Origin: Candidatus Doudnabacteria bacterium RIFCSPHIGHO2_01_FULL_46_24
GTDB lineage: Bacteria; Patescibacteriota; Doudnabacteria; UBA920; O2-02-FULL-48-8
Assembly (NCBI GenBank): GCA_001777575.1
Contig: MFEL01000008.1
Location: 42,634 to 106,633, forward strand
Direction of reading: 5' to 3'
Length of the DNA stretch: 64,000 nt
Position 1 is the first letter of the stretch. The number at the start of each line of letters is the position of its first letter. The notes under the pieces are model-generated. The model was not told where the DNA came from and did no database searches. It was given only the letters and a program-made list of their open reading frames with translations. Of the stretch, positions 20,006 to 39,453 are shown in pieces. Both the position numbers and the translations under genes were made by a program.

Positions 20006-21124
20006 CTAGAAAATTCTCTGGAACAAATTTTTGAAGTTTTCGCTATAGCGGCTGACGTCCTTGATAGTGACCAGAACCATCAAAAGCAACAGCAGGCCGA
20101 AGCCGATGGTGTTGGCTGCCTGTTCGGCTTTGGCCGGGAGTTTTTTACGGCGGATGGTTTCGATGGCTAAAAACAAGACCCGGCCGCCGTCCAGGGCAGG
20201 AAACGGAACGGCGTTGATTACCGCCAGGTTGATGGAAAGCAGGGCGGTGAATTGCAGAATATAAATAAAGCCAAGTTCAGCCACATCTCTGGTCAGCACC
20301 GCAATTCCCACCGGTCCTGACACAGCCACAGCCACAGACGCGCCCTGAAGCCAGGAGCCAATCACTTCAGCAAACGCCGATATCGTGACGCCGACCAGGC
20401 TGAAAGCGGAAACAAACCCGCGGGGCAATAATTGGTACCAAGGGTAAGAAACTCGCGCCACCATTGCCAGACCTATGCCCAAGGGACCCTGACCCTCCGG
20501 CGGATTTTCCCTGGGCACTAAGTTTTTTTCAAATGTCGAATCTCCGCGCCTGATTTCATACACTGTCTGTCTCCCAACATTCTGCCGCGTCAGCTCCTGC
20601 AGCTGTTCAATGCTGGCAATGATTTCGCCTCCGACTTTGATAATACTGTCCCCGGCCTTGATCCCTACTGACGATGCCGGAGAATCAGCAGCTAAATCTA
20701 TGATTGTAATCGACGGGTTTTTAACCCTGGCCGAGGCAGGCAAGCTTTCGCCTTCATGAATCACGGTCGGCAAACCCAAACCTAAGCCTATTGCGATTAA
20801 AATCCAGGCCAAAACCACGTTCATCGACACTCCGGCGACTAAGACAAAAAATCTCTGCCAAGCGGATTTGTTGGCAAAACTTTTGGAGTCTTGGGATTCA
20901 GCCCCATCTTCGCCGGTAATTTTGACGAAACCGCCCAGTGGAATCCAATTGATCGAATAAATGGTTTCGCCTCGTTTAATCCCGAAAAATCTGGGCGGAA
21001 AGCCAAACCCGAATTCTTCCACGCGCATGCCGGCCCGTTTGGCCATAATAAAATGCCCCAGTTCATGGACAAAAACCAGGAGGCCAAGGATTGCTATAAA
21101 AATGATAATCGTGAGTAGAATCAT
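20006..21124 (-). CDS. rseP: Site-2 protease RseP (M50 zinc metalloprotease with PDZ domain)
   Basis: HELGHFIMAKRAG HExxH motif and a PDZ segment. Polytopic membrane protein. Confidence 0.85.
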   Translation of the reverse strand: MILLTIIIFIAILGLLVFVHELGHFIMAKRAGMRVEEFGFGFPPRFFGIKRGETIYSINWIPLGGFVKITGEDGAESQDSKSFANKSAWQRFFVLVAGVSMNVVLAWILIAIGLGLGLPTVIHEGESLPASARVKNPSITIIDLAADSPASSVGIKAGDSIIKVGGEIIASIEQLQELTRQNVGRQTVYEIRRGDSTFEKNLVPRENPPEGQGPLGIGLAMVARVSYPWYQLLPRGFVSAFSLVGVTISAFAEVIGSWLQGASVAVAVSGPVGIAVLTRDVAELGFIYILQFTALLSINLAVINAVPFPALDGGRVLFLAIETIRRKKLPAKAEQAANTIGFGLLLLLMVLVTIKDVSRYSENFKNLFQRIF

Positions 21125-21236
21125 GCAGTAATGCGTTATTCGTCGGCGCCACGCGTATCGTCTTACGGCTTACGTTTTGCGGCCGCTTACCGTTTAACGC
21201 TTACCAATACGCGCCGCGCTGCCGTTAAACGTTTAA
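21125..21236 (-). repeat. Intergenic repeat family 3, copy 1 (acg/cgt-rich; contains gcgctgccgttaaacg)
   Basis: Shares a 16-mer and vocabulary with 27653-27752 and 35380-35479. Confidence 0.55.
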
Positions 21237-21791
21237 CTAAATGGTCAATACTTCCTTCTCTTTCGCTTCTGCTAATTTTTTAATCTCCTCGTTAAACTTG
21301 TCCACCATTTTCTGCAAATCCTGCTTTGAGGAAATTTTATCGTCTTCCGAAATTTTTCCGTCTTTTTCCTGCTTCTGGATGTCCTTCCAAATTTCCTCGC
21401 GGATGTTGCGGATAGAAACGCGAGTTTTTTCCGCCAATTGCGCCACGATTTTTACCATCTCCTTTCTTCGCTCCTCAGTCATCGGCGGGATGTTGAGCCT
21501 GATGTATGTTCCGTCATTGATGGGATTGATGCCAAGATTGGAAGTCTGGACTGCTTTTTCGATATCTTTCAGCGCGTTTTTGTCATATGGCTGGATGGCG
21601 ATTGAGCGAGCTTCCGGCACCGTAATTTGGGCGATCTGAATCAGCGGCGTTTTGGCGCCATAATACTCAACCTCGAGATGCTCCACAAGCTGCGTGGAGG
21701 CGCGCCCAGTGCGCAGGGTTTTAAGTTCAGACTTAAAATACTGAACGGCTTTGGCAAATTCTTGTTCTTTTTTTGTGAGGTCAATGGTCAT
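21237..21791 (-). CDS. frr: Ribosome recycling factor
   Basis: Full-length RRF similarity (LRTGRASTQLVEHLEVEYYG). Confidence 0.9.
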   Translation of the reverse strand: MTIDLTKKEQEFAKAVQYFKSELKTLRTGRASTQLVEHLEVEYYGAKTPLIQIAQITVPEARSIAIQPYDKNALKDIEKAVQTSNLGINPINDGTYIRLNIPPMTEERRKEMVKIVAQLAEKTRVSIRNIREEIWKDIQKQEKDGKISEDDKISSKQDLQKMVDKFNEEIKKLAEAKEKEVLTI

Positions 21792-22840
21792 TTCTTATCT
21801 CCGAGTCCTAAATATACTATATTTCGCTCCTTGGGATCAATGGTCACGACCCTGATCGCCTGCTCGGTGCGCAATTCATTGGTCTCCCAGGTAATCGCGC
21901 CGTTTAGGCTTTTGAAAATAGTCGAGCCGATACTGACGAAAATATTGTTGGAATTGCCGGGGTTGACTGCCACTGCCGAAACTTTGAGTGCTTGATCCCG
22001 AACCGGCAGAGTCAGCATATTCCAAGCAGCGCCGTCATTGACCGTCCGGAAAAGCCCCTCCTCGCCAGCGAGGTAAATAACCCCGGTCTGCCGCAAGTCC
22101 AAGGCAAAATCATGAAACAGGGAAACATGCGGCAATGATCCCTGCCCCGTTGATATGTTGTCTGTGGTCAAACTGGAAGAGATAAGAGTCCAACTGTTGC
22201 CGGAATCCGTGCTCTTATAAAAACCTGATGTTCTGGCAAGCGCATAAACGGTGTTGAGATTGTTGAACTTGATTTTGATGATACGATTTTGGAAATCGCG
22301 CGAAGCCTGCCAGGTGTTGCCGGAATCGAAGGAACGAATAATCTCCCCGCTCGCCAACCCCCCGATAACCACGGAATTCGACACAGCTAAGCTCGTGACT
22401 GACACCGCTTTGGAAGGTTCGGTATAAGAATCCGTCCAATTCACGCCGCCATCCACGCTTTTGATAATCTTGCCATTGTTACCCGAGAGCCCGGCGGCAT
22501 AAACGGTGGTGGGTTTGCTCAACTCGACCGCAATGTCAGCAACCGACATTCCCGACAGCAAATATCTCCAGTTTTGGCCGCCGTTTTCCGTTTTATAAAT
22601 GCCGGAAGCGGAACCGAGATAAATCACCTCGGGATTCTTGGGATCAAAAGTCAGGGAATTGACGGAAACATTGTTGATGTTTCCCTTTTTTTCCAGCGCG
22701 TTTGAAGCCCTGAAACTCTCGCCGCCGTCTTCGGACTTAAATACACCGCGGCTGCCGGTCGTTATTGAAAACGGGTCAGCCAAATTACAGCTGGCGGCGA
22801 TGAATATCGTTGATAGGAGTGCCAATATGAATTTATGCAT
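21788..22840 (-). CDS. Secreted BNR/Asp-box repeat beta-propeller lipoprotein
   Basis: Lipoprotein signal (…AASC). Repeated S-x-D-x-G-x-(T/N)-W Asp-box motifs (STDSGNSW, SFDSGNTW, SVDGGVNW, TENGGQNW). Confidence 0.6.
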   Translation of the reverse strand: MHKFILALLSTIFIAASCNLADPFSITTGSRGVFKSEDGGESFRASNALEKKGNINNVSVNSLTFDPKNPEVIYLGSASGIYKTENGGQNWRYLLSGMSVADIAVELSKPTTVYAAGLSGNNGKIIKSVDGGVNWTDSYTEPSKAVSVTSLAVSNSVVIGGLASGEIIRSFDSGNTWQASRDFQNRIIKIKFNNLNTVYALARTSGFYKSTDSGNSWTLISSSLTTDNISTGQGSLPHVSLFHDFALDLRQTGVIYLAGEEGLFRTVNDGAAWNMLTLPVRDQALKVSAVAVNPGNSNNIFVSIGSTIFKSLNGAITWETNELRTEQAIRVVTIDPKERNIVYLGLGDKK

Positions 22841-23801
22841 TCAATTCATTATTAAGCATTAAGTTCGTCAGCACGAGCTTACTGTTGAGGTTTTGGTCGA
22901 GCAATAATGTGGTCGCCAACAGATTTCTAAGTTTGGCTGCGGTCGATACCGAAGGTTTGGTTTTCAATTCCTCAGCTAGTTTAACTGTCCAAAAATGAAT
23001 CTTTGAGTGAACCGTATCGTTCTCCTCATCCTCAAGCGCGGAGACCAAAAGAAGCCGTTGCATCTCATCAGTAGAAATAAGATCATTATATTGTGAATCA
23101 ATCTCGCTCAAATGCGCCAAAAAATCTTCATCGCTAGAAATGCGCATCGCAATCCCCGGTTGAGTCGGGGCGTAGGCGGCAATCAGTCTTTTTTGCTCTG
23201 ATGAAAGTTTGGCGGGAAGTAAATTTTCGTAATCCTTGAATTCCGCGCCGCCGAAAGTTATTTTCTGCAATCTCGAGGAAATGGTTTTAAGCAGGCGCTG
23301 CGGGTTGGCGGTGACCAGAACAATAACCGTGTAAGACGTGGGCTCTTCCAGGCTTTTGAGCAAGGCGTTTTGAGCCTCAACCGTCATGTTCTCCGCCTGG
23401 TCTATGATCGCAACTTTATAAGTCGCGCTGTAAGGCTTTAGGGATAATTTGTAAATCAATTCCCGCACCTGACCAATCTTGATTCCGCCTGTGCCATCCA
23501 GCTCTATAAGATCTGGATGGAACCTGTTGCTCTTGTCATCTCTACTCCCCACACCCAACTCCAAAAGCCTCTCCGCAAACCTCCTCGCCGCAGTCCGCTT
23601 GCCCACGCCCTCTGGCCCGGCAAATAAATACCCATGCGCAAGCTTGCCTCGACTTATGGCATTTTCCAAAAATTCCAGTTGTCTTTTGTGTCCGCAAATG
23701 TCTCCCCACATATTATTAATTTTAGCATTTTCTATCAGGATTGACAAAAGCCCCGCCAACGCCGGAGCGTCGCAACAAAAAACCAGCAAGCGAGAGCGCA
23801 T
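22833..23801 (-). CDS. holB: DNA polymerase III delta-prime subunit
   Basis: AAA+ clamp-loader fold. GPEGVGK P-loop. Confidence 0.75.
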   Translation of the reverse strand: MRSRLLVFCCDAPALAGLLSILIENAKINNMWGDICGHKRQLEFLENAISRGKLAHGYLFAGPEGVGKRTAARRFAERLLELGVGSRDDKSNRFHPDLIELDGTGGIKIGQVRELIYKLSLKPYSATYKVAIIDQAENMTVEAQNALLKSLEEPTSYTVIVLVTANPQRLLKTISSRLQKITFGGAEFKDYENLLPAKLSSEQKRLIAAYAPTQPGIAMRISSDEDFLAHLSEIDSQYNDLISTDEMQRLLLVSALEDEENDTVHSKIHFWTVKLAEELKTKPSVSTAAKLRNLLATTLLLDQNLNSKLVLTNLMLNNELNA

Positions 23802-24036
23802 GCTGACTTTTGTTAGGCCCAGTATATCAACTTCGATAAATGGTTTTATCCGCTTTTGCGGTCTACTATAACCAAGCTCTCGGTTATAGTTGATGAAAGA
23901 TCAGGCATTGATCGATCCGACCATTTGAACGCAAAAGCGATCGAAGTTGTATTACTGGGTAGGCTTAACCTCAGCCATTTTCGCAAAAGCAAACTTAGGC
24001 GTCAATCAGGATAAGTGGAAAAAATGTTAGTAAAAA

Positions 24037-24053
24037 GCCACCTCATCGGTGGC
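24037..24053. terminator. Symmetric hairpin gccacc-tcatc-ggtggc flanked by A5 and GTTTTA (bidirectional terminator-like)
   Basis: Lies inside the 575-bp ORF-free region. Read on the minus strand it is followed by a T run. Confidence 0.4.
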
Positions 24054-24399
24054 GTTTTACATACAGATCGGTGTGGTACTGATTTGTCAGCTTCGCCCTT
24101 ACGAACTCCACTGACCGAAGGAAAAGGTCCAAGAGGTTTCCCTTACTTGTTTGACACCGAAGACATTTCTTCTTCAGCGTACCTTTACTAACCAGTATCT
24201 CTTGATCCATCGAACAGCCTTTTTAGAGCCGTCCTGCTTCGCAAGGGTTGCCCCTTACGAAGACCATGGTAGGAACATTCTAACTAGGGTAAAAAATCAC
24301 GTCAAATATTTTTTCAATTACAAAAAATAGCCACATTTGCAGGCTTTTTTGTCAGGCTGTGAATAAGCTGTGCCTATCAAGAGGATAATATCTTAATAT

Positions 24400-24445
24400 C
24401 TATAATATCCCAATATCGATATTAGGATACTAAGATATTGGGATA
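24400..24445 (-). terminator. Perfect 15-bp inverted repeat (taatatcccaatatc / gatattgggatatta) immediately after the mreB-paralog stop
   Basis: AT-rich perfect palindromic arms separated by 16 nt, directly 3' of the stop at 24446. Confidence 0.4.
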
Positions 24446-25453
24446 TTATTTGCTCGCCAATATGCTGCGCTTATAACTCTCCAAGTTTTCCAGTGCCACA
24501 CCCGTTCCTTTGGCTACGCATAAAATAGCATCATCAGCCACATAAGCAGGTACGCCGGTGGATTGGCCAATCAGACGCTCAATGTTCCGCAGGAGCGCCG
24601 TACCGCCAGTTAGAACCATGCCTTTATCAATGATATCCGCGGCCAGCTCCGGCGGCGTTTCCTGCAGGACGGTTCTTACGGCTTTGATGATTTCGCGCAG
24701 TTCTTCCTGGATGGACTCGACAACCTCATTGGTCGAAACCTGTACGGTTTTGGGCAGGCCCTGAATCAAATCCCGGCCGCGAATCTCGATCGTGGTTTCT
24801 TTATCCACGGGCAAAGCCGAGCCAATTTTGATTTTTATCTCCTCAGCCGTACGATCCCCGACCGCCAAGCCATATTTGCGGCGAATATATTCAGCAATAG
24901 CCTGGTCAAGCTTATTACCAGCCACGCGCACGGACGTCTGGGTCACAATTCCGCCCAAAGACAGCACCGCAACATCAGTCGTGCCCCCGCCAATATCGAT
25001 AATCATGTTACCGGAAGGCGTCGAAATATCTATTCCAGCACCTATGGCAGCAGCCACCGTCTCTTTAATGACATAGGCGGCCTTGGCGCCAGCTGCGGTA
25101 GCGGCGTCCACCACGGCGCGGCGCTCAGTCGATGTAATGCCGCCTGGCACAGAAATCATGACTTCCGGCCGGAAGAACCGGATATTGCCCGCCGCCTTGT
25201 TGATAAAATACCGCAACATGGCCTCGGTTACGCGGTAATCCGCAATCACCCCGTCCTTCATGGGCCGGTGCGCCACGATGGTGTCCGGGGTTCGGCCAAG
25301 CATCTCTTTGGCTTCCGCGCCCACAGCCAAAACTTTGTTGTCAACGGTTGAAATAGCCACCACTGTTGGCTCATTGATGATAATGCCTTTTTTCGGCACG
25401 AAGACTAAGGTATTAGCTGTGCCTAAATCTATGCCGATTCTCTTTAGAAACAT
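24446..25453 (-). CDS. mreB: MreB-family actin homolog (second paralog)
   Basis: [14 protein letters not shown] motif. 335 aa. About 50% identical to the copy at 16850-17908. Confidence 0.85.
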
Positions 25454-25521
25454 AGTTATAAATTATTTTATTACGAATTCCGGATTAACGAATTGTCAAT
25501 CCGCAATCCGTTAATTCGCAA
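25454..25521 (-). repeat. Intergenic repeat family 2, copy 1 (cggattaacgaattg / ccgttaattcg words)
   Basis: Related to 55728-55804 and 56960-57034. Contains nested inverted repeats. Confidence 0.65.
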
Positions 25522-26775
25522 TTAATCAATTCTCTTGATATCCGCGCCCAAGCTTTGCAGTCTTTCTTCTAATCGCTCATACCCCCGATCAATATGCTCC
25601 ACTCCGCCTATCTCGGATTGTCCAGTGGCCACCAGAGCCGCAATTATCATGGTCATACCCATCCGAATGTCAAGGCCTATTATTTTAGCACCATGCAGGG
25701 GAGTAACACCAGCGATCTTTACCTGATGGGAGTCTAACACTTCCGCGTTGGCACCCATTTTTTTAAGCTGTTGGACATAGCTGAGACGGTTCTCGTAAAG
25801 CCATTCGAAAATATAAGATTCACCTTCGGCCTGCGTGGCCAGCACGGCCATGGGCGGCATGTCGTCTGAAGCCAACTTAGGATACAACCCGCTTTGGATT
25901 TTAGAGCCAGTATAAGGCTTTTGGGACGGCGACACATGGATATAATCTTTTCCGGTTTCAAAATTTACATGCATCTGCCGCAGTTTCAGCAAAAAATCTT
26001 CCATAAATTCCGGATTCAATCGGGAAATGACCACGTCGCTTTTGGTAGCTGCGGCCAAGGTAATAAAACCGGCAGCCTCGTTGGAATCCGGAATAAGTTC
26101 GGCGGTGGCGCCATGAAGCTCAAGCGCGCCTTCCACGACCAAAGTCGGCGACCCGATGCCGGAAATCTTGGCCCCCATTCTGTTCAAAAATTCGCACAAA
26201 GCCTGGACATGCGGCTCCATGGCCGCCAGTTTGATTATGGTTGTCCCCGAGGCCAAAACCGCGGCCATTAACGCGTTTTCCGTGGCTGTGACCGATGATT
26301 CAATTAAAACGATTTTATTGCCTGTTAATTGCTCGCAGTTAAGCTCAATGCCGTTTCCCTGCCTCACCTCGGCTCCTAAATCCTCAAAAGCGCGCAAATG
26401 GGCATCCACGGGCCGTTTGCCGATCAAATCGCCGCCTGGCAAAATCATGGCGGCTTTTTTCTTCCGGGCCAACAAAGGCCCCAAAAGCAATATGGATCCG
26501 CGCAATTTGGCAGCCAAATCCGGATTAACTTCGGTCTTGGAAAGTTTTGCGGCCCTGATGCTGAGGCGGTGATCTCCCAAACTGACTTCTGCGCCCAAAT
26601 CCGAAAGCAATGACGCCATGGTTTCCACATCGCGGATTTTGGGCACATTGGTCAATATGCACTCGTCCGCCGTCAAAAGGCAGGCCGCCATCATGGGCAA
26701 AACCGCGTTCTTTGACCCCGCGACTGTTATTTCCCCGTTTAGCGGTTTATTGCCGTTTATAATAAATTTAGCCAT
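25522..26775 (-). CDS. murA: UDP-N-acetylglucosamine 1-carboxyvinyltransferase
   Basis: Start reassigned to MAKFIINGNKPLNGEITVAGSKNA (ATG at 26775). The 88-aa N-terminal extension in the ORF track has no similarity. Confidence 0.9.
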   Translation of the reverse strand: MAKFIINGNKPLNGEITVAGSKNAVLPMMAACLLTADECILTNVPKIRDVETMASLLSDLGAEVSLGDHRLSIRAAKLSKTEVNPDLAAKLRGSILLLGPLLARKKKAAMILPGGDLIGKRPVDAHLRAFEDLGAEVRQGNGIELNCEQLTGNKIVLIESSVTATENALMAAVLASGTTIIKLAAMEPHVQALCEFLNRMGAKISGIGSPTLVVEGALELHGATAELIPDSNEAAGFITLAAATKSDVVISRLNPEFMEDFLLKLRQMHVNFETGKDYIHVSPSQKPYTGSKIQSGLYPKLASDDMPPMAVLATQAEGESYIFEWLYENRLSYVQQLKKMGANAEVLDSHQVKIAGVTPLHGAKIIGLDIRMGMTMIIAALVATGQSEIGGVEHIDRGYERLEERLQSLGADIKRID

Positions 26776-26824
26776 ATATAAGCTTGGGTATTTTAACAAA
26801 AAATAGTAAAATAATGAATAGCTT

Positions 26825-27652
26825 ATGAAACTGCGAAATCGGCTATTACTTGTAGGTTTCGGGGTGGTGGTATTCCTAATTGTAACCCCGGCTCTAATCA
26901 TGTTTGCTCGGGGTTTTAAGTTTGACCTGCAAAGTTGGCAATTGATCAAGACCGGGACTCTGGTGGTGAGAACCGAGCCGGAACATGCCACGGTCTTTAT
27001 CGACGATAAGCCGCAAAAAAATTTGACTCCTTTGACCATCCGATTCCTCTTGCCTGGCGATTATGTCATCCGCATCGAAAAAGAGGGTTACAGTTCCTGG
27101 ACCAAGCGACTTTCAATCAAAAGCCAGCTGGCGACCTGGGCCAACGCCAACCGCGAATTTATTACCCTTTTTCTTAAGCAACCCCAGCCGGAAACACAAG
27201 CCGAAGTCCCAAAAAATGAAGCCTTCCCAATTTCGGAGGGTTTAATCCAGGCGGGCCAACTCAGCTTCACTCTCCAGGATTCAATCCTCTTTAGACAAAA
27301 CCCGGGCTTAGAAAAAATTTATGAACCGGTCAGGGAAGCCTATTGGGATGATGAATCTAAAAGGATTGTATTATCCAATAATAACGAAATTTTGCTTCTC
27401 GACCCCCTCAATGACAGCCCTGATCTTATCCTCCGCAGCGTTTCGGAAATCAGAAATGCCAGGCTCAACTGGCATACCGGCTACATGTTTTTCCAAAACG
27501 AAGGCCGGATCAAAGCCATTGAACTGGATGGCCGGGATCACCGGAATGTTTATACAATCACAGATGCCGGGGTAGATTTTACGATAGATGAAAAAGGCGA
27601 GAGGCTGTATGTGATGGGTCAGACAGAGGTTAAGGAATATCGGATACGGTAA
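26825..27652 (+). CDS. Membrane-anchored PEGA-domain protein
   Basis: N-terminal TM helix and the PEGA motif region (…LLPGDYVIRIEKEGYSSW). Confidence 0.55.
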   Translation: MKLRNRLLLVGFGVVVFLIVTPALIMFARGFKFDLQSWQLIKTGTLVVRTEPEHATVFIDDKPQKNLTPLTIRFLLPGDYVIRIEKEGYSSWTKRLSIKSQLATWANANREFITLFLKQPQPETQAEVPKNEAFPISEGLIQAGQLSFTLQDSILFRQNPGLEKIYEPVREAYWDDESKRIVLSNNNEILLLDPLNDSPDLILRSVSEIRNARLNWHTGYMFFQNEGRIKAIELDGRDHRNVYTITDAGVDFTIDEKGERLYVMGQTEVKEYRIR

Positions 27653-27752
27653 ATCGTTGTTCGTCTGCGCTTGCGCGTATCGGTGAACGTCAAACGTCAA
27701 GCGGCCACATAACGCCGCCGTCAGACGATACGCGCAGCGCTGCCGTTAAACG
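27653..27752 (-). repeat. Intergenic repeat family 3, copy 2
   Basis: Contains cgcgcagcgctgccgttaaacgctaag, related to 21125-21236. Confidence 0.55.
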
Positions 27753-28175
27753 CTAAGTGCTTTCATCCAAAGCCTCATTGACTAGCTTATCCGCCAGTTT
27801 ATTTTTTTCCCGCGGAACATGCTTATATTCCACGCTCAGAAACTTGTTCGAAAGCTTAAAAACCTCGGCAGCCAAAAGTTTCAGTTCTTGCTCTTTTACT
27901 TTGTACTTGCCGGTCAGCTGGCGCACCACCAACTCTGAATCCAAAAAACAGGTTAATTCTTTGGCTTCTAAACTTTCAGCTTCTTTGAGGCCTCGGATCA
28001 AAGCCTGATATTCAGCCTGGTTATTTGTGGCATTGCCAATATGCTCGCCTACTTGGCGCAAGGGCTTCTCGCCAACGCCATAAATCACCACCCCAATCGC
28101 CGCCGGCCCGGGATTCCCCCGCGCCCCGCCATCCGTGTAGATTGTAATCTTATTTGGCATAATTTTTAGTGTCAA
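27753..28175 (-). CDS. rnhA: Ribonuclease HI
   Basis: ITIYTDGGARGNPGPAAIG N-terminus and the DEDD catalytic residues. Confidence 0.8.
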   Translation of the reverse strand: MTLKIMPNKITIYTDGGARGNPGPAAIGVVIYGVGEKPLRQVGEHIGNATNNQAEYQALIRGLKEAESLEAKELTCFLDSELVVRQLTGKYKVKEQELKLLAAEVFKLSNKFLSVEYKHVPREKNKLADKLVNEALDEST

Positions 28176-28408
28176 AGATGCCCTTTGACACTAAATCTTG
28201 GTTCAACGAGCCGGAACGCCCGATTTTTTGCAATTTTCTGATTGAATTTACAGGTCTGGCCATAAATTACGTAACAAATTATATAATTATCTCTATAATT
28301 ATAGTTTAGCATATTTGTGCTATAATCTCTCTGCCCAAAGCCTTGCTGCCCCACAGGCCCATGTGTCTGCCGGCGCGTTTTTTTTATTCCACTAAAAACA
28401 GAGTCTTT

Positions 28409-28437
28409 TTGACAAAATTGTCAAGAGAGGATAGAAT
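28409..28437 (+). promoter_or_regulatory. Sigma70-like promoter for the TA operon (TTGACA-17-TAGAAT) overlapping a TTGACAA/TTGTCAA palindrome. Predicts a leaderless transcript.
   Basis: -35 at 28409-28414, a 17-nt spacer, and -10 at 28432-28437. The ATG at 28444 is 7 nt after the -10. Confidence 0.5.
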
Positions 28438-28443
28438 TTAAAT

Positions 28444-28671
28444 ATGACACAAGCAGTAATTACGAAGATCAAATCAAACAGCATTTTACTGCCCAAAACA
28501 TGGAAGGGCAGCAAGGTTCTTTTACGCATCACTGACAACACTGCGACTATTACCAAGGTACCCAAGACAAGCAATATTTTTTCACTTCAAGAAATTAAAG
28601 CTTGGCGACGATTGGGCAAAAAGGTCGCCAAATCAACCCTAAATAAAGCCTTGGCAAAAGCTCGTGAATGA
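28444..28671 (+). CDS. Putative antitoxin (AbrB/MazE-like swapped-hairpin DNA-binding protein)
   Basis: 75 aa. Its stop overlaps the start of the PIN gene by 4 nt. Confidence 0.5.
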   Translation: MTQAVITKIKSNSILLPKTWKGSKVLLRITDNTATITKVPKTSNIFSLQEIKAWRRLGKKVAKSTLNKALAKARE

Positions 28672-29090
28672 AAATCTTTGCCGATACTAATGTTATAGTT
28701 TCCATGCTGCTCTGGGGAAAGTCCTTAGAGCAGCTTTTTGTCCTAATCAACGCTCGCAAGATAACTTTAGGCTTTTCGCCGGCGACAATCGAGGAATTGT
28801 TCCGTGTTGTCAATTATCCGCAAATAGCCAAACAAGCCCTTAAGCAGAATGTTGATGCCGAAGTCCTTGCCGATAAATTAGTTGCCGCTTCTGAAATTTG
28901 TTATCCAAGCAAAACATTTGACATTGTCGCTGATGATCCAAGCGATAATAAAATACTCGAAACAGCTCTGGAAGCCAAAGCCGAGTATATAATTTCTGGG
29001 GACAGGCATTTGCTGCAATTGAAAACTTTCGAAAAAATCCCAATTGTTACACCAGCAAAATTTCTAAAGCTTAATATCAACAATTTTTAA
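28668..29090 (+). CDS. PIN-domain toxin (VapC-like)
   Basis: MKIFADTNVI…DPSDNKILETAL…ISGDRHLL carries the conserved acidic residues of a PIN nuclease. Confidence 0.75.
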   Translation: MKIFADTNVIVSMLLWGKSLEQLFVLINARKITLGFSPATIEELFRVVNYPQIAKQALKQNVDAEVLADKLVAASEICYPSKTFDIVADDPSDNKILETALEAKAEYIISGDRHLLQLKTFEKIPIVTPAKFLKLNINNF

Positions 29091-30821
29091 TTCCAAATTC
29101 GTATTGCCTTTCCAGGAGTTTTCTTCGAGTTCATAGACTGCGTCAATTTTGGTTCCAGAAACAAGTTTATCAGAAAGAAAACCTTGGCCAAAGGCAATGG
29201 CTCCGATAAATTTGCCGGCAAGTTTAAGCCGCATCTTCAAGTGCTTGCTGCCGTTGCCTACCGTCCGGCACTCCACGACTTCCATGCCACAGGAAACGAA
29301 TTTTGGTTTGGGGTTATCCACGCCGAACGGCGCCATTTTTTTTATGTAAGCGTAATTTTCCGCAGTAATGTCTTCTGCGGCTAGTTCGCAATCGACCTCT
29401 AACACCGGCGGCTCGAATTCGGCGCTGACAGTTTCCACGTATTCCAGAAGCTTCTGGTGAAAACTTGGGATGTGTTCGGAGGCCAAAGTGAACCCGGCGG
29501 CCTGGGTGTGCCCGCCGAACCGCACCAGCAAATCCTTGCTGGAATTAAGTGCCGCCACTAAATCAAAATTTCCAATTGAGCGGCCGGAGCCGGTAGCCAA
29601 TAATTCTTCCTTGCGCAAAATCAGCACCGGCCGGCCGTATTCTTCCACCAGTTTGCCAGCCACCAGACCCACTACTCCTTTGGGCCAATCGGCGCCATAA
29701 GCCAGCAGAATTTTCTTGTCCGGCATCAGCGAAAGCTGCTCGCGGGCTTCGCTTAACACCTGCTCTGTCAACGTCTGCCGTTGCTTGTTCAAATCGTTCA
29801 ACTCCAAGGCCAGCCGGCCGGCCTCGGCCTCATCTTCGCTAACCAAAAGCTTGAATGCCAAATCCGCATGCTTGATCCTTCCCGCGGCATTGATGCGGGG
29901 CGCCAAAATAAATCCCAATGTAAAAGTGTCAAAGGGAATCTTTGACACCTGGGAAACGTCCAAAAGCTTCCTAATTCCAAGCCAGCGGGTTTTGGCTAAA
30001 ACTTTGAGGCCAAATGAAACCAGAATGCGATTCTCTCCGGTTAGACTTTGACAATCCGCCACAGTCCCAATGGCTACGAGGTCGAGCAGCCATTTTTCCC
30101 AGCCAGGCGCTACTCCATTCCCGCTGAGAATTCGCTGAGTTGAGCGGGAATCTTGCTGAGATCCCCGATTACTTGCCTGACCCTCCTTTCGGGGATGGTT
30201 TGGGTCTGTGGAGAATAAAGCCTGCACAAGCTTATAAGCGACGCCTACGCCTGTTAAAAATCGAAACGGATAATTGTCCGTTGGATTCTTAGGATTGATC
30301 AAAGCGTAAGCCCCTGGCAATTCCCCTGTGACCTCGTGGTGGTCCGTGACGATCAAATCAATCCCCAGCTCCTGGCAAAGTTTGGCCTCGGCAACTGAAT
30401 TGGTCCCGCAATCAACCGTGATGATCAGCTTACTTCCGCTTTCCGCAATTTTTTTGACAGCATCGCTGTTGACGCCATAACCTTCCGCGAATCGGTCCGG
30501 AATATAACAATCAATGACGGCGCCAAGTTTTTTTAGCGCCAAAAAAACCACGCTGGCGGCGGTAATCGCATCCGCGTCATAGTCTGCGTAAATCGTGATT
30601 TTTTCCTGATTTGTTATTGCTAATTTGACACGCTCCACTGTCTTCTCCATCTCTCGAAACAAGAACGGGTCATGAAGTTTGTAATACTCGGGCTCCAAAA
30701 AACCCCGGATTTCCTCAGCCTCAAACAGGCTGCGCAAGTTGAGCAATTTTAAGACAAACGCCGGATATTCCGGCAGGTTTGGCTGTTGCTGAGGCAAATT
30801 TTTCAATTTCCACTTTTTCAT
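29064..30821 (-). CDS. recJ: Single-stranded-DNA-specific exonuclease RecJ
   Basis: DHH (ITIYADYDADAITAAS) and DHHA1 motifs. Start set at ATG 30821, directly after the receiver gene's stop. Confidence 0.85.
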   Translation of the reverse strand: MKKWKLKNLPQQQPNLPEYPAFVLKLLNLRSLFEAEEIRGFLEPEYYKLHDPFLFREMEKTVERVKLAITNQEKITIYADYDADAITAASVVFLALKKLGAVIDCYIPDRFAEGYGVNSDAVKKIAESGSKLIITVDCGTNSVAEAKLCQELGIDLIVTDHHEVTGELPGAYALINPKNPTDNYPFRFLTGVGVAYKLVQALFSTDPNHPRKEGQASNRGSQQDSRSTQRILSGNGVAPGWEKWLLDLVAIGTVADCQSLTGENRILVSFGLKVLAKTRWLGIRKLLDVSQVSKIPFDTFTLGFILAPRINAAGRIKHADLAFKLLVSEDEAEAGRLALELNDLNKQRQTLTEQVLSEAREQLSLMPDKKILLAYGADWPKGVVGLVAGKLVEEYGRPVLILRKEELLATGSGRSIGNFDLVAALNSSKDLLVRFGGHTQAAGFTLASEHIPSFHQKLLEYVETVSAEFEPPVLEVDCELAAEDITAENYAYIKKMAPFGVDNPKPKFVSCGMEVVECRTVGNGSKHLKMRLKLAGKFIGAIAFGQGFLSDKLVSGTKIDAVYELEENSWKGNTNLELKIVDIKL

Positions 30822-30822
30822 C

Positions 30823-31251
30823 TCAAATTGTCGTTCTCCCGACTTGCTCATCGTCTGAGGGAACAACTGGTTTGGGCTTGGCCGGATTCAAAAGTTCCTT
30901 GACTTTCTGCAAAATTTTAGAAGGATTATCATAGCCCTTGACCATAAAGTTGACGTTTATAAGCTTGGCAGCTTTCTGCTTGTCCTCTTCCCGCCCCAAA
31001 TGTGAGAACAAAATCACGGGAGTGACGGCTGTGGCGACATTGTTGCGCAAATTGTGAATAAGCTCAAATCCATCCATGCGCGGCATGATAATGCCAGTAA
31101 ACAGCAAGTCCGGGATATGTGCCAGCGCCATTTCCAATCCTTCCAATCCGTCATCCGCTTCATAAACCGTAAAACCATTCTGACGAAACAGTTCGGCGTA
31201 AAGCCCTCGTTGCTCTTGGTCGTCGTCAATGACAAGTATTTTCTTAGCCAT
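30823..31251 (-). CDS. Stand-alone CheY-like receiver domain lacking the phospho-acceptor aspartate
   Basis: VIDDD acidic pocket, and S and K at the conserved positions. The CheY D57 position is Gly (LLFTGIIMPRMDG). Confidence 0.7.
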   Translation of the reverse strand: MAKKILVIDDDQEQRGLYAELFRQNGFTVYEADDGLEGLEMALAHIPDLLFTGIIMPRMDGFELIHNLRNNVATAVTPVILFSHLGREEDKQKAAKLINVNFMVKGYDNPSKILQKVKELLNPAKPKPVVPSDDEQVGRTTI

Positions 31252-31260
31252 ATCAATAGT

Positions 31261-32862
31261 TTAAATTTGTTTTAGTAATTGTGGCAGTAAGCTAATCCCG
31301 GTCATTTCTGCAGGCTTAGCCATACCCATCAATTCCAGCACGGTCGGCGATACGTCGGAAAGCACGCCTACGGGAATGACCGAAGACAGAGAAACGATCC
31401 CACCGACCTTGGGTTTTTTTTCTTCAAACTGCCGCCCGACCAATATAAATGGCACAGGGTTGGTGGAGTGTTCCTTGTCCATGCCGCCGGAGCGAATGTC
31501 CAAGAGTTCCTCGATGTTGCCATGGTCGGCTGTGATGATCATGCAAATATCCTGTTCCAGGCAAGCATCCGCCAATTTTTTCAAACATTCATCGATGACT
31601 TTGATTGCCTGAATGGAGGCGCTGACATTGCCCGTGTGGCCCACCATGTCGGGGTTGGCGTAATTGACCAGGAAAAAACTGTAATTGCCGTTAAGCCGGG
31701 ACAATAGCGCGTCCGTGACTTTGTAGGCGGACATCTCCGGAATGTCTTGGTAATTTTGATAGTTCGACATGGGCGAGGTGACAATTTCGCGGTCCTCTCC
31801 CGGAAAAGGATTGATGATTCCGCCGTTAAAGAATACCGACACATGGGCGTATTTCTCCGATTCAGCGACGTGAAATTGCCGCAACCCTTGCTTGCTGACC
31901 ACTTCCGCCAGCCCATTTAGGATTTCCATTGGCGGGAAAGCGATTTTCACTTGCAAGTCTTTGGCATATTCGGTCATAGTCACGACCAATAAATTCTTAA
32001 ACTGCTTAACCGAAGGAAACTTATCAAACCCCGGCTCGACCAAAGCTCTGGTCATTTGCAGCGCTCGGTCGGGACGAAAGTTGAATTGAATGACCGCGTC
32101 GTTTTCCGAAATTACGGCCGGATTGCCGTCCTTTTGGATGATCACCGTCGGTGGAATCATTTCGTCAAAGATGTGTTTGGCGTAATTTTCTTCAATAGCC
32201 GCTTTGACTGAGGTTGCTTTTGGGCCATTCCCCATGACCATGACTTTGTAGGCAAGATCGGTTAAATTCCAATGTTCGGCGCGATCCATGGCATAAAACC
32301 TGCCGGAAATCGATGCAATATTTCCGGTCCCGAACGTGTTGATTTTATGCATGAGTTTCTCCAAAGATTCCAGTGCAATCTGCGGCGGGGTGTCCCGGCC
32401 ATCCGTAAACATGTGGATATAGACGTTTTTCACCTTCGATTCGGAAGCCAAACCCAAAAGCGCATAAAGATGTTCGTCGTAGCTGTGTACGCCGCCGGGG
32501 CTGACCAAACCCATCAAGTGTAAAGAGGAATTATGCTTTTTAACATGCTCCACTGCCGCCGAAAAAGCCTGGTTCTTAAAAAAACTCCGATCTTCGATGG
32601 AGAGCGTAATACGGGACAAATCCTGCCCCACAATTCTGCCCGCCCCCAAATTGAGGTGACCGACTTCGGAATTGCCCATCTCCCCCCACGGCAAGCCCAC
32701 AGCAGGACCAGAAGCCTGCAGGGTGGTATTGGGATAATGGTTGACGAAATGATCAATATTGGCAGGCTGGGCCAAGGTCACGGCATTGCCGTGAGACGCG
32801 GTGGCAATGCCAAAACCGTCAAGGACGACCAGGACGAGTTTTTTGAAAGGCTGGAAAGTCAT
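31261..32862 (-). CDS. gpmI: 2,3-bisphosphoglycerate-independent phosphoglycerate mutase
   Basis: Full-length iPGM similarity (VLDGFG…, metal-binding His/Asp). Confidence 0.9.
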   Translation of the reverse strand: MTFQPFKKLVLVVLDGFGIATASHGNAVTLAQPANIDHFVNHYPNTTLQASGPAVGLPWGEMGNSEVGHLNLGAGRIVGQDLSRITLSIEDRSFFKNQAFSAAVEHVKKHNSSLHLMGLVSPGGVHSYDEHLYALLGLASESKVKNVYIHMFTDGRDTPPQIALESLEKLMHKINTFGTGNIASISGRFYAMDRAEHWNLTDLAYKVMVMGNGPKATSVKAAIEENYAKHIFDEMIPPTVIIQKDGNPAVISENDAVIQFNFRPDRALQMTRALVEPGFDKFPSVKQFKNLLVVTMTEYAKDLQVKIAFPPMEILNGLAEVVSKQGLRQFHVAESEKYAHVSVFFNGGIINPFPGEDREIVTSPMSNYQNYQDIPEMSAYKVTDALLSRLNGNYSFFLVNYANPDMVGHTGNVSASIQAIKVIDECLKKLADACLEQDICMIITADHGNIEELLDIRSGGMDKEHSTNPVPFILVGRQFEEKKPKVGGIVSLSSVIPVGVLSDVSPTVLELMGMAKPAEMTGISLLPQLLKQI

Positions 32863-32903
32863 AAAATAGTTGAAAGTTTATAAAGTTTCGGAACTTTATA
32901 AAC

Positions 32904-34157
32904 TTAGAACTTAGAACTTAATTCTTCTTCTATCGCCATCAACCGGTTGTATTTTGCCACTCTTTCTCCTCTCGCCACCGATCCCGACATTATATAATCC
33001 GCGCCAATGCCGACAGCAAGATCAGCGATGAAATCATCGTTGGTTTCGCCACTTCTATGCTTTGCCACGACTTTGTATCCGTGTTTCTGAGCCAAAGCGA
33101 CAGTCTCAAGAGTTTCAGTAATCGTACCAACCTGGTTTGGTTTTATGATTATCGCGTTGGCAATGCCAAGATCAATTCCTTTTTGCAACCGCGATTTTTG
33201 GGTTGTGAACAAATCATCGCCGATCAAAAGCATTTTCTTGCCCAAGCGATCCTGCATCATCTGCCAGTCTTCAAAATCTTCTTCCATTAACCCGTCTTCA
33301 ATCGCCACAATCGGATATTGCTCGGCCCATTGGTTATACAGCGACACCAAGCGCTCAGCGGACAAGGAGGTATGATCCGCCTTCAATACATATTCCTTGT
33401 GGTTGACGTCATAAAATTCACTGGCCGCGGCATCAATGGCCAGGCCGACACTTTTGTATCCAGTTTCCTTAACCGCCTTCATAATCATATCGAACGCCTG
33501 GCCATTTCCCTCCCAGTTCGGCGCAAATCCGCCCTCAAACCCCAAATCCGTGTCCAACCGATGAAGTTTGAGGACTTTTCGAAGAGATTGGAAAATATCC
33601 GCGCCCATTTCAATTGCCTTGGCAACTGAATCCGCTTGCGGGATAACCATGAATTCCTGAATGTCAAGATTGGTGTCTCCATGCAAGCCGCCTTCAATGA
33701 GCAAAATCGAAGGTTGGGGTAATTTCCAGCCCTTTTTATGCTTATGCAAAAATGCTATGTATTTGTAAACTGGAACTTTTTTCGCAGCCGCAGCGGCTTT
33801 GCAAACCGCGCCGGAAACGCCCAAAATCGCATTGGCTCCCAGCCTGGCTTTATTAGGAGTGCCGTCCAGATCAATCAAAGCCTGGTCAATTTTGCCCTGG
33901 GCCAGCACGTCCATGCCGTGCAATTTCTTGGCAATGACATTGTTGACATGATCAACCGCCTGACTTACGCCCTTGCCGCTGAAAGCCGTACCGCCGTCGC
34001 GCAGCTCCAAAGCCTCGTTCTTGCCCGTGGAAATCCCGCCCGGCACGCCAAAAGTCCCGCTGCCCTTGGCGGTTTCCACCGTGGCCTCCACAGTCGGAAT
34101 CCCCCGCGAATCCAAGATCTGACGGGCAAATGTGTTTTTTATCGTAATTTTAGGCAT
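32904..34157 (-). CDS. eno: Enolase
   Basis: ILDSRGIPTVEA N-terminus and the enolase signature. Confidence 0.95.
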   Translation of the reverse strand: MPKITIKNTFARQILDSRGIPTVEATVETAKGSGTFGVPGGISTGKNEALELRDGGTAFSGKGVSQAVDHVNNVIAKKLHGMDVLAQGKIDQALIDLDGTPNKARLGANAILGVSGAVCKAAAAAKKVPVYKYIAFLHKHKKGWKLPQPSILLIEGGLHGDTNLDIQEFMVIPQADSVAKAIEMGADIFQSLRKVLKLHRLDTDLGFEGGFAPNWEGNGQAFDMIMKAVKETGYKSVGLAIDAAASEFYDVNHKEYVLKADHTSLSAERLVSLYNQWAEQYPIVAIEDGLMEEDFEDWQMMQDRLGKKMLLIGDDLFTTQKSRLQKGIDLGIANAIIIKPNQVGTITETLETVALAQKHGYKVVAKHRSGETNDDFIADLAVGIGADYIMSGSVARGERVAKYNRLMAIEEELSSKF

Positions 34158-35379
34158 GATTGGCCTCCAACACCTTAATTGCAGGAAGTTTTTTGCCGCT
34201 TAGGAATTCTAGCATGGCGCCGCCGCCGGTGGAAACATGATCCACGAACTGGGTGACTTTGGCCGAATTCAAAACTTCCAAAGTTTCCCCGCCGCCCGCG
34301 ACGCCATAAGCCGGTCCTTTGGAGCGACCGGCAAAAACCCGCGCCATTGATTCGCTGCCGAATGCATACCGCTTGATCTCGATCATGCCAAAGGGGCCGT
34401 TCCAGACCAATGTCACGGCATTTTTGACATATTCAGAAAACTTTCTAATCGTTTCCGGGCCGATATCCAGAATTATGTCCTCCGGCATGACCTTGCTTAC
34501 AGCCGCATTGTGAGGTGTATCCTCCAAAGAATGAGCAACCACCACATCCACTGGCAGAATTATTTTTTCTTTAAAATTTCGCGTCAGTTCCTTGGCCAAG
34601 GATTCATCGGCGAATTTGGATTTGCCAATTTCATACCCTTTCGCTTTTAGGAAAGTGTTGGCAATGGCTCCACCCAGAAGAATGTGAGAAGCCCCCTTGA
34701 GTAAATTTCTCATACTTTCGACTTTGTCGGAAATTTTTAACCCTCCAATCAAAATCACCATGGGTTTGGTCGGGTTTCTCAAAAGTCTATACAAGGCTTT
34801 GATCTCCCGTTCAAACGCGATCCCGCAATAGGATTTAAGTTTTACCGCCAATCCATAGGTAGAAGCGGACACTCTGTGGCTGACAGAAAACGCCTCGTTG
34901 ACGTAAAGTTCGCCAAACTTGGCCAGGGTTTGGATGAATTCCGGGTCATTTTCTTCTTCTCCGGCATAAAACCTCAGGTTTTCTAAAAACAATATACTCC
35001 CATTCGGTATCGGCAATTTCGAATAGTCGTGCTTAGTGATATCTTCTGTTAAAAAATAAATATGCGGGATGGGATAGTGCGGCAATTCGGAGGAAATTTT
35101 GACTACTTTCATGCCCAAAAATTCGCCCAGTCTCTTTGCTGCAGGCCACAGACTTTTATCAGCCTGCCGGCCTTCCGGCCTGCCCAAATGGGAAATCAGC
35201 GTGACCTTGGCTTGATTCTGAATCAGATATTCGATCGTTCTTAGAGCGTCCTTGATTCTGGTATCATCCGCCGCCTCCCATTCTTCGGTATGGATATTTT
35301 TTTTCAGAGGCACGTCAAACCCGACGCGAACTATCACGCGCCGGCCTTGCACTTTAACAGAAGTAATGCTCTTAATCAT
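34150..35379 (-). CDS. pgk: Phosphoglycerate kinase
   Basis: Full-length PGK similarity. Confidence 0.9.
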   Translation of the reverse strand: MIKSITSVKVQGRRVIVRVGFDVPLKKNIHTEEWEAADDTRIKDALRTIEYLIQNQAKVTLISHLGRPEGRQADKSLWPAAKRLGEFLGMKVVKISSELPHYPIPHIYFLTEDITKHDYSKLPIPNGSILFLENLRFYAGEEENDPEFIQTLAKFGELYVNEAFSVSHRVSASTYGLAVKLKSYCGIAFEREIKALYRLLRNPTKPMVILIGGLKISDKVESMRNLLKGASHILLGGAIANTFLKAKGYEIGKSKFADESLAKELTRNFKEKIILPVDVVVAHSLEDTPHNAAVSKVMPEDIILDIGPETIRKFSEYVKNAVTLVWNGPFGMIEIKRYAFGSESMARVFAGRSKGPAYGVAGGGETLEVLNSAKVTQFVDHVSTGGGAMLEFLSGKKLPAIKVLEANHA

Positions 35380-35479
35380 TTAGTAATAAGTTAAAGGGCT
35401 GCGATGCCCGTTTCGTCATACGGTGACGCTTTACGTCTAACTCTCAACGATACGGGCTTCGTTACCGTAAGACGCTAAA
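35380..35479 (-). repeat. Intergenic repeat family 3, copy 3
   Basis: acg/cgt-rich words (cgtttcgtcatacggtgacgctttacg…ccgtaagacgctaaac). Confidence 0.5.
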
Positions 35480-36541
35480 CTATAAGTTCTTGCCAATAAG
35501 TATTGCCTGCTCCACAAACCTGTTTGCATACCCAAACTCATTGTCGTACCACGCCACGACTTTGACCAGGTCGCCGTCCACGACTTGCGTTAGCGACAAA
35601 TCAACAATGGCCGAATGGGGATTGCCGACAATGTCCGACGACACGATCGGATCAGTCGTCACTTGCAAAACTTTTTCCCACATGGGATTTTTGGCCGCTT
35701 CCATAAAAACTTTATTAATTTCATCCACCGTGACCTTGCGCTGCAGAACCGCGGTAAAATCCGAAAGCGAACCGCAAGTGACTGGCACGCGATAAGCCGC
35801 TCCGCCAAACAAGCCTTTAAGCTCAGGGATGACTTCAGTAGCGGCAATGGTTGCTCCGGTTGTAGTCGGGATAATGTTGGCCGAGGCGGCGCGGGCGCGG
35901 CGCAAGTCATTTGATTTGCCGCCAGGCGGCGGACCGTCCACCAAATTCTGTTCCGCGGTATAGGCGTGGATGGTGGACATCATCATTTTTTTGATCCCGA
36001 ATTTGCTATGCAAAATGGCGGCCACCGGCGTGATGCAATTGGTGGTGCAGGAAGCGTTTGAGATAATCTGTTGGTTCTGGTAACCCCTATCATTAACGCC
36101 AATGATGAAAGTTAGCGTAATTCCTTCGTCCTTGGCCGGCGCTGAAATAATTACTTTCTTCGCCCCGGCTTTCAAATGCGCGCTGGCCAATTCCGTAGTC
36201 ACAAATCTGCCGGTGGACTCCAATACCACGTCCACGTCCAAATCTTTCCACGGCAAAAGGCCCGGGTCTTTTTCGGCAAACACCGGAACTTTAATTTCAT
36301 CTGCAATCAGACTTCCGACTGAATACGAAACCGAACTGGCTCGTTCGTGCCTGTCGTCAAAGCTGACCTTTTTTTCATAAACGCCATAAACCGAATCGTA
36401 GCGCAGGAGATGCGCCAAAACTTTCGGCTCCGTCAAATCATTGATAGCCGCGACCTTGAGTTCGGGTTTGGTTAAGGCGATTTTGAAGGCAGAACGCCCT
36501 ATCCGGCCAAAGCCGTTGATTGCAACACGTATCGGACTCAT
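35480..36541 (-). CDS. gap: Glyceraldehyde-3-phosphate dehydrogenase
   Basis: INGFGRIGR NAD motif. Catalytic SCTTNC. Confidence 0.9.
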   Translation of the reverse strand: MSPIRVAINGFGRIGRSAFKIALTKPELKVAAINDLTEPKVLAHLLRYDSVYGVYEKKVSFDDRHERASSVSYSVGSLIADEIKVPVFAEKDPGLLPWKDLDVDVVLESTGRFVTTELASAHLKAGAKKVIISAPAKDEGITLTFIIGVNDRGYQNQQIISNASCTTNCITPVAAILHSKFGIKKMMMSTIHAYTAEQNLVDGPPPGGKSNDLRRARAASANIIPTTTGATIAATEVIPELKGLFGGAAYRVPVTCGSLSDFTAVLQRKVTVDEINKVFMEAAKNPMWEKVLQVTTDPIVSSDIVGNPHSAIVDLSLTQVVDGDLVKVVAWYDNEFGYANRFVEQAILIGKNL

Positions 36542-39408: not shown

Positions 39409-39420
39409 ACTTCCGTTCTA

Positions 39421-39444: not shown

Positions 39445-39453
39445 TATTATAAA

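Follow-up and report, generated by a model that had tools for sequence, protein, structure and literature searches.

Bacterial 23S rRNA genes can be interrupted by intervening sequences (IVSs), which carry an S23p open reading frame (ORF) in Leptospira, Coxiella burnetii, Brucella and Xanthomonas, and are devoid of ORF in Salmonella and others. The Coxiella IVS is 428 nt long: the inverted repeats at its ends make up a 28-bp stem, its loop contains an S23p (PF05635) ORF, it has tandem heptamers in variable number (GACAGAT, 2 to 3 times), and it is excised by ribonuclease III (RNase III) cutting within the stem. Neither where it came from nor how it moves has been explained (PMC4990558). PF05635 ORFs are also present in rRNA insertions of bacteria from the candidate phyla radiation, CPR (bioRxiv 10.1101/2024.02.27.582315), and the PF05635 / S23p family is treated in the literature as Avd-related. 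Two other kinds of hairpins are relevant here. Repetitive extragenic palindromes (REPs) are 20-40 nt long, with stems of 5-13 bp, loops of 2-20 nt and a conserved GTAG or CGTC tetranucleotide (PMC3733652), and the early mRNA of phage T7 contains intercistronic hairpins processed by RNase III (Dunn and Studier 1973, as cited in PMC4990558). In this study, we analyzed a stretch of 64,000 nt of the Candidatus Doudnabacteria bacterium RIFCSPHIGHO2_01_FULL_46_24 (contig MFEL01000008.1, positions 42,634 to 106,633), hereafter named the window, in which three spacers between protein-coding genes (frr-rseP, rnhA-PEGA and gap-pgk) are filled with long hairpins of the same family. These spacers are probably miniature, ORF-less copies of an IVS-type inverted-repeat element placed at cistron boundaries.

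Three spacers of the window belong to one hairpin family

The window has a GC content of 0.47 and its genes lie mostly on the minus strand; names of the flanking genes were confirmed by Pfam. Spacers 21125-21236, 27653-27752 and 35380-35479 are homologous, as they align over their full length with a mean column identity of 76%. Each of them is a single long imperfect hairpin spanning the entire gap that separates two coding regions (Table 1). Only two places of the window have the 16-mer GCGCTGCCGTTAAACG, namely 21216-21231 and 27737-27752. Between copies 1 and 2 it extends to 24 shared bases out of 25 (ATACGCGCnGCGCTGCCGTTAAACG), a stretch matched at 72% in the third spacer, at 35450-35474 (repeat family D11). 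A degenerate pattern of the 27-nt arm gave exactly three matches in the window, and none in 100 shuffles even when 3 mismatches were allowed. A covariance model of the family also detected exactly three copies, the next match having an E value of 0.13. The adjoining 10 kb on the left side, which bring the part of this genome covered to 74 kb, had no extra copy. Copy 1 is identical in two contigs of the same species (L001 and L005; outside loci are designated by such numbers).

Read on the minus (coding) strand, the 5' arm has the consensus CGTYTWACGGYARCGnnGCSCGTATYG, the 3' arm is its imperfect complement, and a smaller inner hairpin is nested within the loop. Two subfamilies are distinguished: A, comprising copies 1 and 2 (...GGCAGCGCnGCGCGTATCG / CGATACGCGCnGCGCCGACGAAnAACG), and B, comprising copy 3 (...GGTAACGAAGCCCGTATCG / CGAAACGGGCnTCG...). 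When used alone, RNAalifold recovered only the inner part of the stem (11 pairs), together with a spurious local stem of 3 pairs; the full stem was therefore written by hand and tested against controls in which the partner column was slid. In an alignment of 25 copies, the 23 stem pairs were 83% paired, versus 24-38% upon sliding by 1-3 columns. Four pairs (alignment columns 19-118, 21-116, 24-113 and 28-108) are compensatory, both sides switching between A and B. Rfam gave no match at gathering score over the window, nor did the surroundings of copies 1 and 3 give any at E <= 10; a tRNA/tmRNA scan found nothing either.

A preliminary description, made by reading the window, had presented the three spacers as a repeat family made of short recurring words, with a 16-mer common to two of them. 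Alignment, arm pattern and covariance model agree that the family is real, and the 16-mer is exact as quoted in the title of that description, the version given with its reasons being a 15-mer. A k-mer null model, proposed there as a check, was run. CGTATCG, counted on both strands, occurs 4 times in the 312 nt of spacer, for 0.13 expected from dinucleotide shuffles (0 of 500 reach 4), and its density in the remaining window is 0.09 per kb. CGTTAAACG occurs 3 times in the three spacers for 0.08 expected, and ACG/CGT is about sixfold denser than elsewhere in the window (122 versus 21 per kb). ACGCTAA, another of the listed words, is not significant alone, its count being reached by 71 of 500 shuffles. 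The spacers had also been described as GC-richer than their surroundings; two of them are (0.54 and 0.59), and pgk-gap is not (0.46).

Recurrence of the words results from the structure itself, because the arms are reverse complements of each other and the sequence is made of degenerate CG-containing units of ~7 nt. CGs are preferentially spaced by 7, 13 and 19-20 nt, with peaks reaching 14.7 times the mean of mononucleotide shuffles, and a spacing of 7 predominates in all three copies. The small modular vocabulary suggested by the preliminary description is therefore right in that several word-built spacer families exist in the window, and wrong in that the words do not form an independent vocabulary. 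Promoter activity of the cassettes, which it suggested testing, found no support: two copies stand inside co-directional gene pairs (frr to rseP and gap to pgk), the third between two convergent stop codons, and the calls of promoter- and terminator-like sites included none on the three copies, regional totals being near shuffle expectation. Intrinsic terminators were rejected as well, given that no terminator-like call was made and that a start codon or a convergent gene follows the hairpin directly.

Table 1. Copies of the hairpin family in the window and their arms. Boundaries of the elements are fixed only to within a few bases. MFE, minimum free energy.
Feature	Position	Strand	Sequence	Evidence	Location
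Copy 1, subfamily A	21119..21239	minus	right end ...ATTACTGC	covariance model 92.2 bits, E 7e-27; MFE -42.1 kcal/mol	fills frr stop to rseP start spacer; frr TAG (21237-21239) inside conserved left end; rseP ATG within 3 nt after shared right end
Copy 1, 5' arm	21205..21231	minus	CGTTTAACGGCAGCGCGGCGCGTATTG	pattern match	
Copy 1, 3' arm	21134..21160	minus	CGATACGCGTGGCGCCGACGAATAACG	read from sequence, arm complementarity	
Copy 2, subfamily A	27640..27760	minus		covariance model 86.2 bits, E 5.9e-25; MFE -44.3 kcal/mol, z -2.7	exactly between convergent stops, rnhA TAG (27753-27755) and PEGA-domain gene TAA (27650-27652)
Copy 2, 5' arm	27726..27752	minus	CGTTTAACGGCAGCGCTGCGCGTATCG	pattern match	
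Copy 2, 3' arm	27655..27682	minus	CGATACGCGCAAGCGCAGACGAACAACG		
Copy 3, subfamily B	35374..35482	minus	left end TAGTTTAGCG	covariance model 88 bits, E 1.6e-25; MFE -30.9 kcal/mol, z -2.5	fills gap stop to pgk start spacer; gap TAG (35480-35482) inside conserved left end
Copy 3, 5' arm	35448..35474	minus	CGTCTTACGGTAACGAAGCCCGTATCG	pattern match	
Copy 3, 3' arm	35396..35415	minus	CGAAACGGGCATCGCAGCCC		

Long forms of the element carry a PF05635 gene

On another Doudnabacteria contig (L011), an ORF of 145 aa matching PF05635 (also named 23S_rRNA_IVP; E 2e-16) comes between the arms of copy 3, the left end being identical to that of copy 3 at 39 of 41 bases. The proteins of this subfamily, IVP-A, were flanked by ACG-type arms in 7 loci out of 7 (L011, L035, L052, L056, L060, L069 and L070), the hosts including one more Doudnabacteria (L052), Brocadia (L056), Curtissbacteria (L060) and Cloacimonadota (L069). 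They are 65-84% identical across phyla, their ORF is co-directional with host genes in every locus, and they give a weak match to 2GSC, the structure of a Xanthomonas S23p (E 0.0058). The full-length unit thus consists of a left arm, a PF05635 four-helix-bundle gene of ~130-145 aa, and a right arm. In the window copies, both arms and short ORF-adjacent stretches are kept and the ORF is absent. Copy 3 aligns to positions 2436-2488 and 2901-2952 of L060, and likewise to the two ends of the L011 and L052 units; relative to L060, the stretch missing from copy 3 goes from ~12 nt before the ATG through the stop codon.

Other subfamilies of the protein have other arms. IVP-C has its own word-built arms (CTAATTGACCTAATT... 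/ ...AGGTCAATTAGAAATTAG) in 3 loci out of 3, and IVP-B, found at a single locus, has a third arm type with GATAGTT-type words. Each IVP subfamily thus goes with one arm family, which speaks for arms and ORF moving as a unit, and against an ORF invading any hairpin.

Some of these units have a particular genomic setting. In Brocadia (L056:2340-3130), the cas1 and cas2 genes of a CRISPR locus are separated by an arm-IVP-arm unit and two solo ACG-type hairpins. Earlier work reportedly lists 23S_rRNA_IVP as a 'cas-associated' family, and reports of this kind might reflect insertions such as this one. L011 and L052 both carry IVP units in a type-IV-secretion-like operon (PrgI / TraC-like / VirB4-like), the ACG-armed unit being placed at a different junction of the operon in each. 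At the junction downstream of PrgI, the two loci have IVPs of different subfamilies (24% identity over 86 aa) with different arms, which indicates turnover of whole units at one junction.

Filled, empty and replaced junctions in relatives

The three junctions were compared with those of related genomes. From frr to rseP, the window has the ACG hairpin (112 nt), L064 (frr 83% identical) a different, AT-rich word-built hairpin of 109 nt, and L065 (84%) yet another hairpin of 83 nt; in L066 (81%), the genes overlap at ATGA. Between rnhA and PEGA, the ACG hairpin of the window (100 nt) corresponds to an unrelated hairpin of 107 nt in L064, to 1 nt in L065 and to 0 nt in L066. From gap to pgk, it (100 nt) corresponds to an unrelated GC-rich hairpin of 116 nt in L067, and the genes overlap in L068. 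The replacement spacers all fold as hairpins, with z-scores from -2.7 to -5.3. Since junctions are empty or replaced in relatives, the elements can be dispensed with, and cistron boundaries gain, lose or exchange them.

The upstream gene ends in TAG in all three copies, and in TGA, TAA or TAG in the relatives. This TAG belongs to the few bases that are still alike across unrelated sites: the left end of copy 3 is shared with L011 and L060, and AGTTAAR is shared between copy 1 and L040. On the other side, the downstream ATG is within 3 nt of the right end ATTAC(C) in copy 1, L040 and L029, and follows it directly in the latter two. These few sites suggest that the element may supply a stop codon and a start context. 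For annotation, this means that a housekeeping gene may owe its stop codon or its start context to an element.

Copies of the family in other phyla

The arm pattern carries ~44 bits, from which ~0.07 chance matches were computed for 596 Gb of genomes. It was found at 9 loci of species-representative genomes and at 36 loci of metagenomes. The genome hosts, named as by the depositors in the case of contigs of metagenome-assembled genomes, are a delta-proteobacterium (2.97-Mb contig), two Omnitrophota, Nitrospiria, Syntrophorhabdus, Rikenellaceae, Saccharibacteria, Doudnabacteria and one unclassified bacterium. In almost all outside loci, a complementary arm is present 12-130 nt downstream. Among 38 distinct elements, 27 have co-directional ORFs on both sides, the upstream one usually being 5-35 nt away. 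Homologues of frr, rseP, rnhA, PEGA, gap and pgk are absent from all outside loci. The outside copies are therefore independent sites and not orthologous ones, and do not allow compensatory evolution in situ to be followed. The identity of copy 1 is higher with copies from two unrelated metagenome contigs, L040 and L029 (78%), than with copy 2 of the same window (70%). A vocabulary specific to this genome is therefore not supported, the family being present in many phyla. Viral contigs gave no match to the arm pattern, and phages were rejected as vectors of the spread on this basis.

One metagenome contig has two ACG-type hairpins (L049:676-833 and 1956-2110) that bracket a single gene, encoding a ychF-like GTPase.

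Proposed nature and action of the element

Homology of the three spacers, conservation of the stem, the link with the IVP gene, turnover at junctions and spread across phyla are direct observations. From these we infer that the spacers are probably ORF-less derivatives of an IVS-type element. By analogy with rRNA IVSs, arms transcribed in the operon mRNA would pair into an imperfect double-stranded stem of ~23 pairs, and, as in experiments on rRNA IVSs, RNase III would cut this stem without religation. A cut in a 23S helix would leave the rRNA fragmented and functional, and a cut between cistrons would leave two separate, independently translatable messages. Both kinds of site would thus tolerate unreligated cleavage, which would explain the strict placement at stop/start junctions.

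Several observations weigh against this interpretation. The MFE z-scores of copies 1 to 3 are modest (-1.25, -2.74 and -2.50), because CG-rich self-complementary words fold well when shuffled, too. Mismatches of the stem show no strand asymmetry (16 G-U versus 39 A-C), and the arms have no uniform orientation with respect to the neighbouring genes (the same in 16 cases, opposite in 11); it is therefore possible that the palindrome acts at the level of DNA and not of RNA. A motif check for RNase III (rnc), which concerned the window only, found none. The window contains no IVP gene, all seven ORF-carrying units have B-type arms, and no ORF-carrying copy was seen for subfamily A, the type of copies 1 and 2. 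The direction of change, loss of the ORF or insertion of an ORF into a hairpin, would be indicated by the pairing of subfamilies and arms, no event having been observed. The search pattern fixed the left arm of every outside copy, which introduces an ascertainment bias. Last, a search for target-site duplications gave no clear case, because orthologous sites with and without the element are too diverged to be read. At copy 3, AACTTAT stands just outside or at both ends (35474-35489 and 35385-35395, reading ...GAACTTATAG/TTTAGCG and ...TTTAACTTATTACTAA/ATG). This pair could be a target-site duplication or a chance occurrence, and no comparable flanking repeat was seen at copies 1 and 2.

Beyond the window, we tentatively put forward a broader idea, for which the odds are rather against us: units made of a hairpin and a four-helix-bundle gene would form a distinct class of mobile elements without transposase, settling in rRNA helices and at cistron junctions, the two kinds of site that tolerate RNA cleavage with no rejoining. 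Mobility would depend on the PF05635 protein, which would recognize its cognate heptamer-built arms, and ORF-less hairpins of ~100 nt would be its miniature derivatives. If so, a large part of the intergenic 'vocabulary' of CPR genomes may consist of these hairpins.

PF05635 four-helix-bundle genes are very common, and the papers that could be searched attribute a mobile appearance to them only within rRNA. What is seen here is the IVS architecture at ordinary gene junctions, with pairing of arm and protein subfamilies, miniatures, filled, empty and replaced states, and spread across phyla. What moves IVSs, and what role the four-helix-bundle protein plays, thereby become testable by comparison and biochemistry. 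This also explains, in concrete terms, why the operons of this CPR genome are filled with word-built hairpin spacers. We found no paper on IVS-type units at protein-gene junctions or on ORF-less derivatives of them, in a literature search of incomplete coverage that is weak evidence of absence. Nothing specific was found either on families of intergenic hairpins in CPR bacteria, most papers in subscription journals being outside the reach of the search. As far as the Rfam and literature searches reach, the arm sequence family is undescribed.

Alternative explanations

The hairpins could be non-autonomous DNA transposons, similar to miniature inverted-repeat transposable elements (MITEs) or to REPs, moved in trans by a transposase (RAYT/IS200-type or other), in which case the four-helix-bundle gene would be a passenger. 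Terminal inverted repeats, a size of ~100 nt, the intergenic position and the presence/absence polymorphism are all expected of such elements, as are insertion in both orientations and mismatches without strand asymmetry. In addition, CGTC-tagged REPs without dedicated transposase have been reported (PMC3733652), and many copies here start with CGTC. However, no transposase gene was seen beside any copy at about 50 loci, IVP is the only gene found between arms and its subfamilies follow the arm families one to one, the ~23 pairs and loops of 12-130 nt exceed the stems and loops of REPs, and a target-site duplication could not be established. We therefore consider that a transposase-driven origin is unlikely. 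Regulatory hairpins of the host that arose in place (terminators or attenuators, mRNA stabilizers, processing sites) and became similar by convergence are a little less likely still. They would be expected at cistron boundaries, where the copies indeed are. Hairpins are also the rule among short spacers of the window, 18 of 29 folding better than shuffles (z <= -2), and orthologous junctions of relatives often hold a hairpin of different sequence, as selection on structure only would give. Convergence hardly accounts for arms of 27 nt, sometimes with ~78% identity over ~120 aligned columns, that are common to unrelated junctions and phyla, nor for the same arms bracketing a conserved gene. Moreover, some close relatives do without any spacer at these junctions, and the hairpins have neither U-tract nor terminator-like call. 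A secondary use by the host, subsequent to insertion, is compatible with an element origin.

Integron-type attC sites, with the flanking genes as cassettes, are very improbable. An imperfect palindrome of ~100 nt placed directly after a stop codon does recall them, and the left end GTTTAAC fits the R'' consensus RYYYAAC, but the right end has no GTTRRRY and reads ...GACGAATAACG or ...CCCTTTAAC. Neither an integrase nor a cassette array is present, and the flanking frr, rseP, gap and pgk are syntenic housekeeping genes, whose order is kept in relatives devoid of the element. The likeness between spacers might at the extreme be a chance or compositional artefact of CG-rich sequence, in keeping with the lack of enrichment of ACGCTAA and with the 16-mer, which gave at least 2 matches in 18 of 100 window shuffles when up to 3 mismatches were allowed. 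To this we give hardly any credit, in view of the full-length alignment, the covariance-model E values, the absence of shuffle matches to the 27-nt pattern, and the 45 loci found outside (9 in genomes, 36 in metagenomes) for ~0.07 expected in the genome collection.

Other repeats and features of the window

Two other families of word-built hairpins were noted. One, made of GCGAAT / ATTCGC words, occupies operon spacers at 5682-5787, 57898-58020 and 58393-58530 (z -5.4, -2.0 and -4.3), with two of the three copies 92% identical and the same architecture as the ACG family; it is probably one of the 'families 1 and 2' of the preliminary description. The other (CGGATTA / ACGAATT / TAATCCG) is found at 25454-25521, 55728-55804 and 56961-57034 (z -4.2 to -4.5), after an mreB-like gene and inside a ribosomal-protein cluster. 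Two AT-rich spacers of 32 nt (10587-10618 and 55354-55385) contain nothing but TTTCTAATTTCTAAT words and show no folding. At three outside loci (L052:3450-3545 and 3915-4000, L035, L041), IVP-C has cognate arms made of these words, and the two spacers may be solo-arm remnants.

Palindromes repeated in spacers were also present: TATAATACATTCATACAGTCGTGTATGAATGT at 39409-39453 and 39946-39990, a palindrome preceded by a TATAAT that could represent a promoter with an operator or a leader hairpin; a AAATGTGCCATGGCACATTTAGGT-type palindrome at 42753-42788 and 43410-43445; and AATACTTCACTGCA...TGCAGTGAAGTATT at 1594-1625 and 19857-19888. Region 23802-24445 (644 nt) has no convincing ORF and no Rfam match at gathering score. 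It starts with a word-built hairpin (TATCCCAATATC...GATATTGGGATA), has a terminator-like hairpin at 24037-24053, and may hold an unrecognized RNA gene. At 19228-19267 and 28406-28445, 9 kb apart, lies an inverted pair of 40 nt, 85% complementary, with TTGACA...TATAAT/TAGAAT-like hexamers, which looks like a strong promoter module shared by two divergent units. At 28444-29090, an ORF of 75 aa overlaps the gene of a PIN-domain protein (PF13470), forming a typical VapBC-like toxin-antitoxin pair that is not at the corresponding position in relatives L064 and L065.

Comparison with known systems

The action proposed for the window hairpins is that of the T7 early mRNA hairpins, an intercistronic double-stranded stem being cut to give separate mRNAs. 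The two have no sequence relation, and the T7 sites are fixed in one phage genome instead of forming a dispersed and dispensable family. Correia elements of Neisseria, also called NEMIS, are MITEs that are transcribed into RNA hairpins and reportedly processed by RNase III. Like them, the present elements are non-autonomous inverted repeats, ~100-150 nt in size, that lie near genes and would be co-transcribed with these into long hairpins. Unlike them, their long form has a four-helix-bundle gene in place of a transposase, they are spread over many phyla, and no duplication of TA or of another target was established.

With REPs, bacterial interspersed mosaic elements (BIMEs) and especially CGTC-REPs, the family shares the extragenic palindrome in operon spacers, the two orientations and, in many copies, a CGTC or CGTT start. 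It differs from REPs by its length of ~100 nt, its stem of ~23 pairs with internal loops, its nested inner hairpin and its optional ORF. In subfamily A, the bases of the CGTC/CGTT start are paired with AACG at the other end, whereas the tetranucleotide of REPs is unpaired. Identity with REPs was rejected, as size and stem length do not fit.

The closest likeness in architecture is to the IVSs of 23S rRNA. Both have a long stem of terminal inverted repeats, with a PF05635 ORF in the loop of the long forms and short forms devoid of ORF. Both have short repeats by the arms, with a CG period of 7 here and heptamers in Coxiella, and both have a patchy, horizontal-looking distribution. The window contains no rRNA detectable by Rfam at gathering score, and the copies stand between protein-coding genes rather than in helix 25 or 45 of 23S rRNA. 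Because of this location, we file the element as a variant of the IVS rather than as a strict member of the class.

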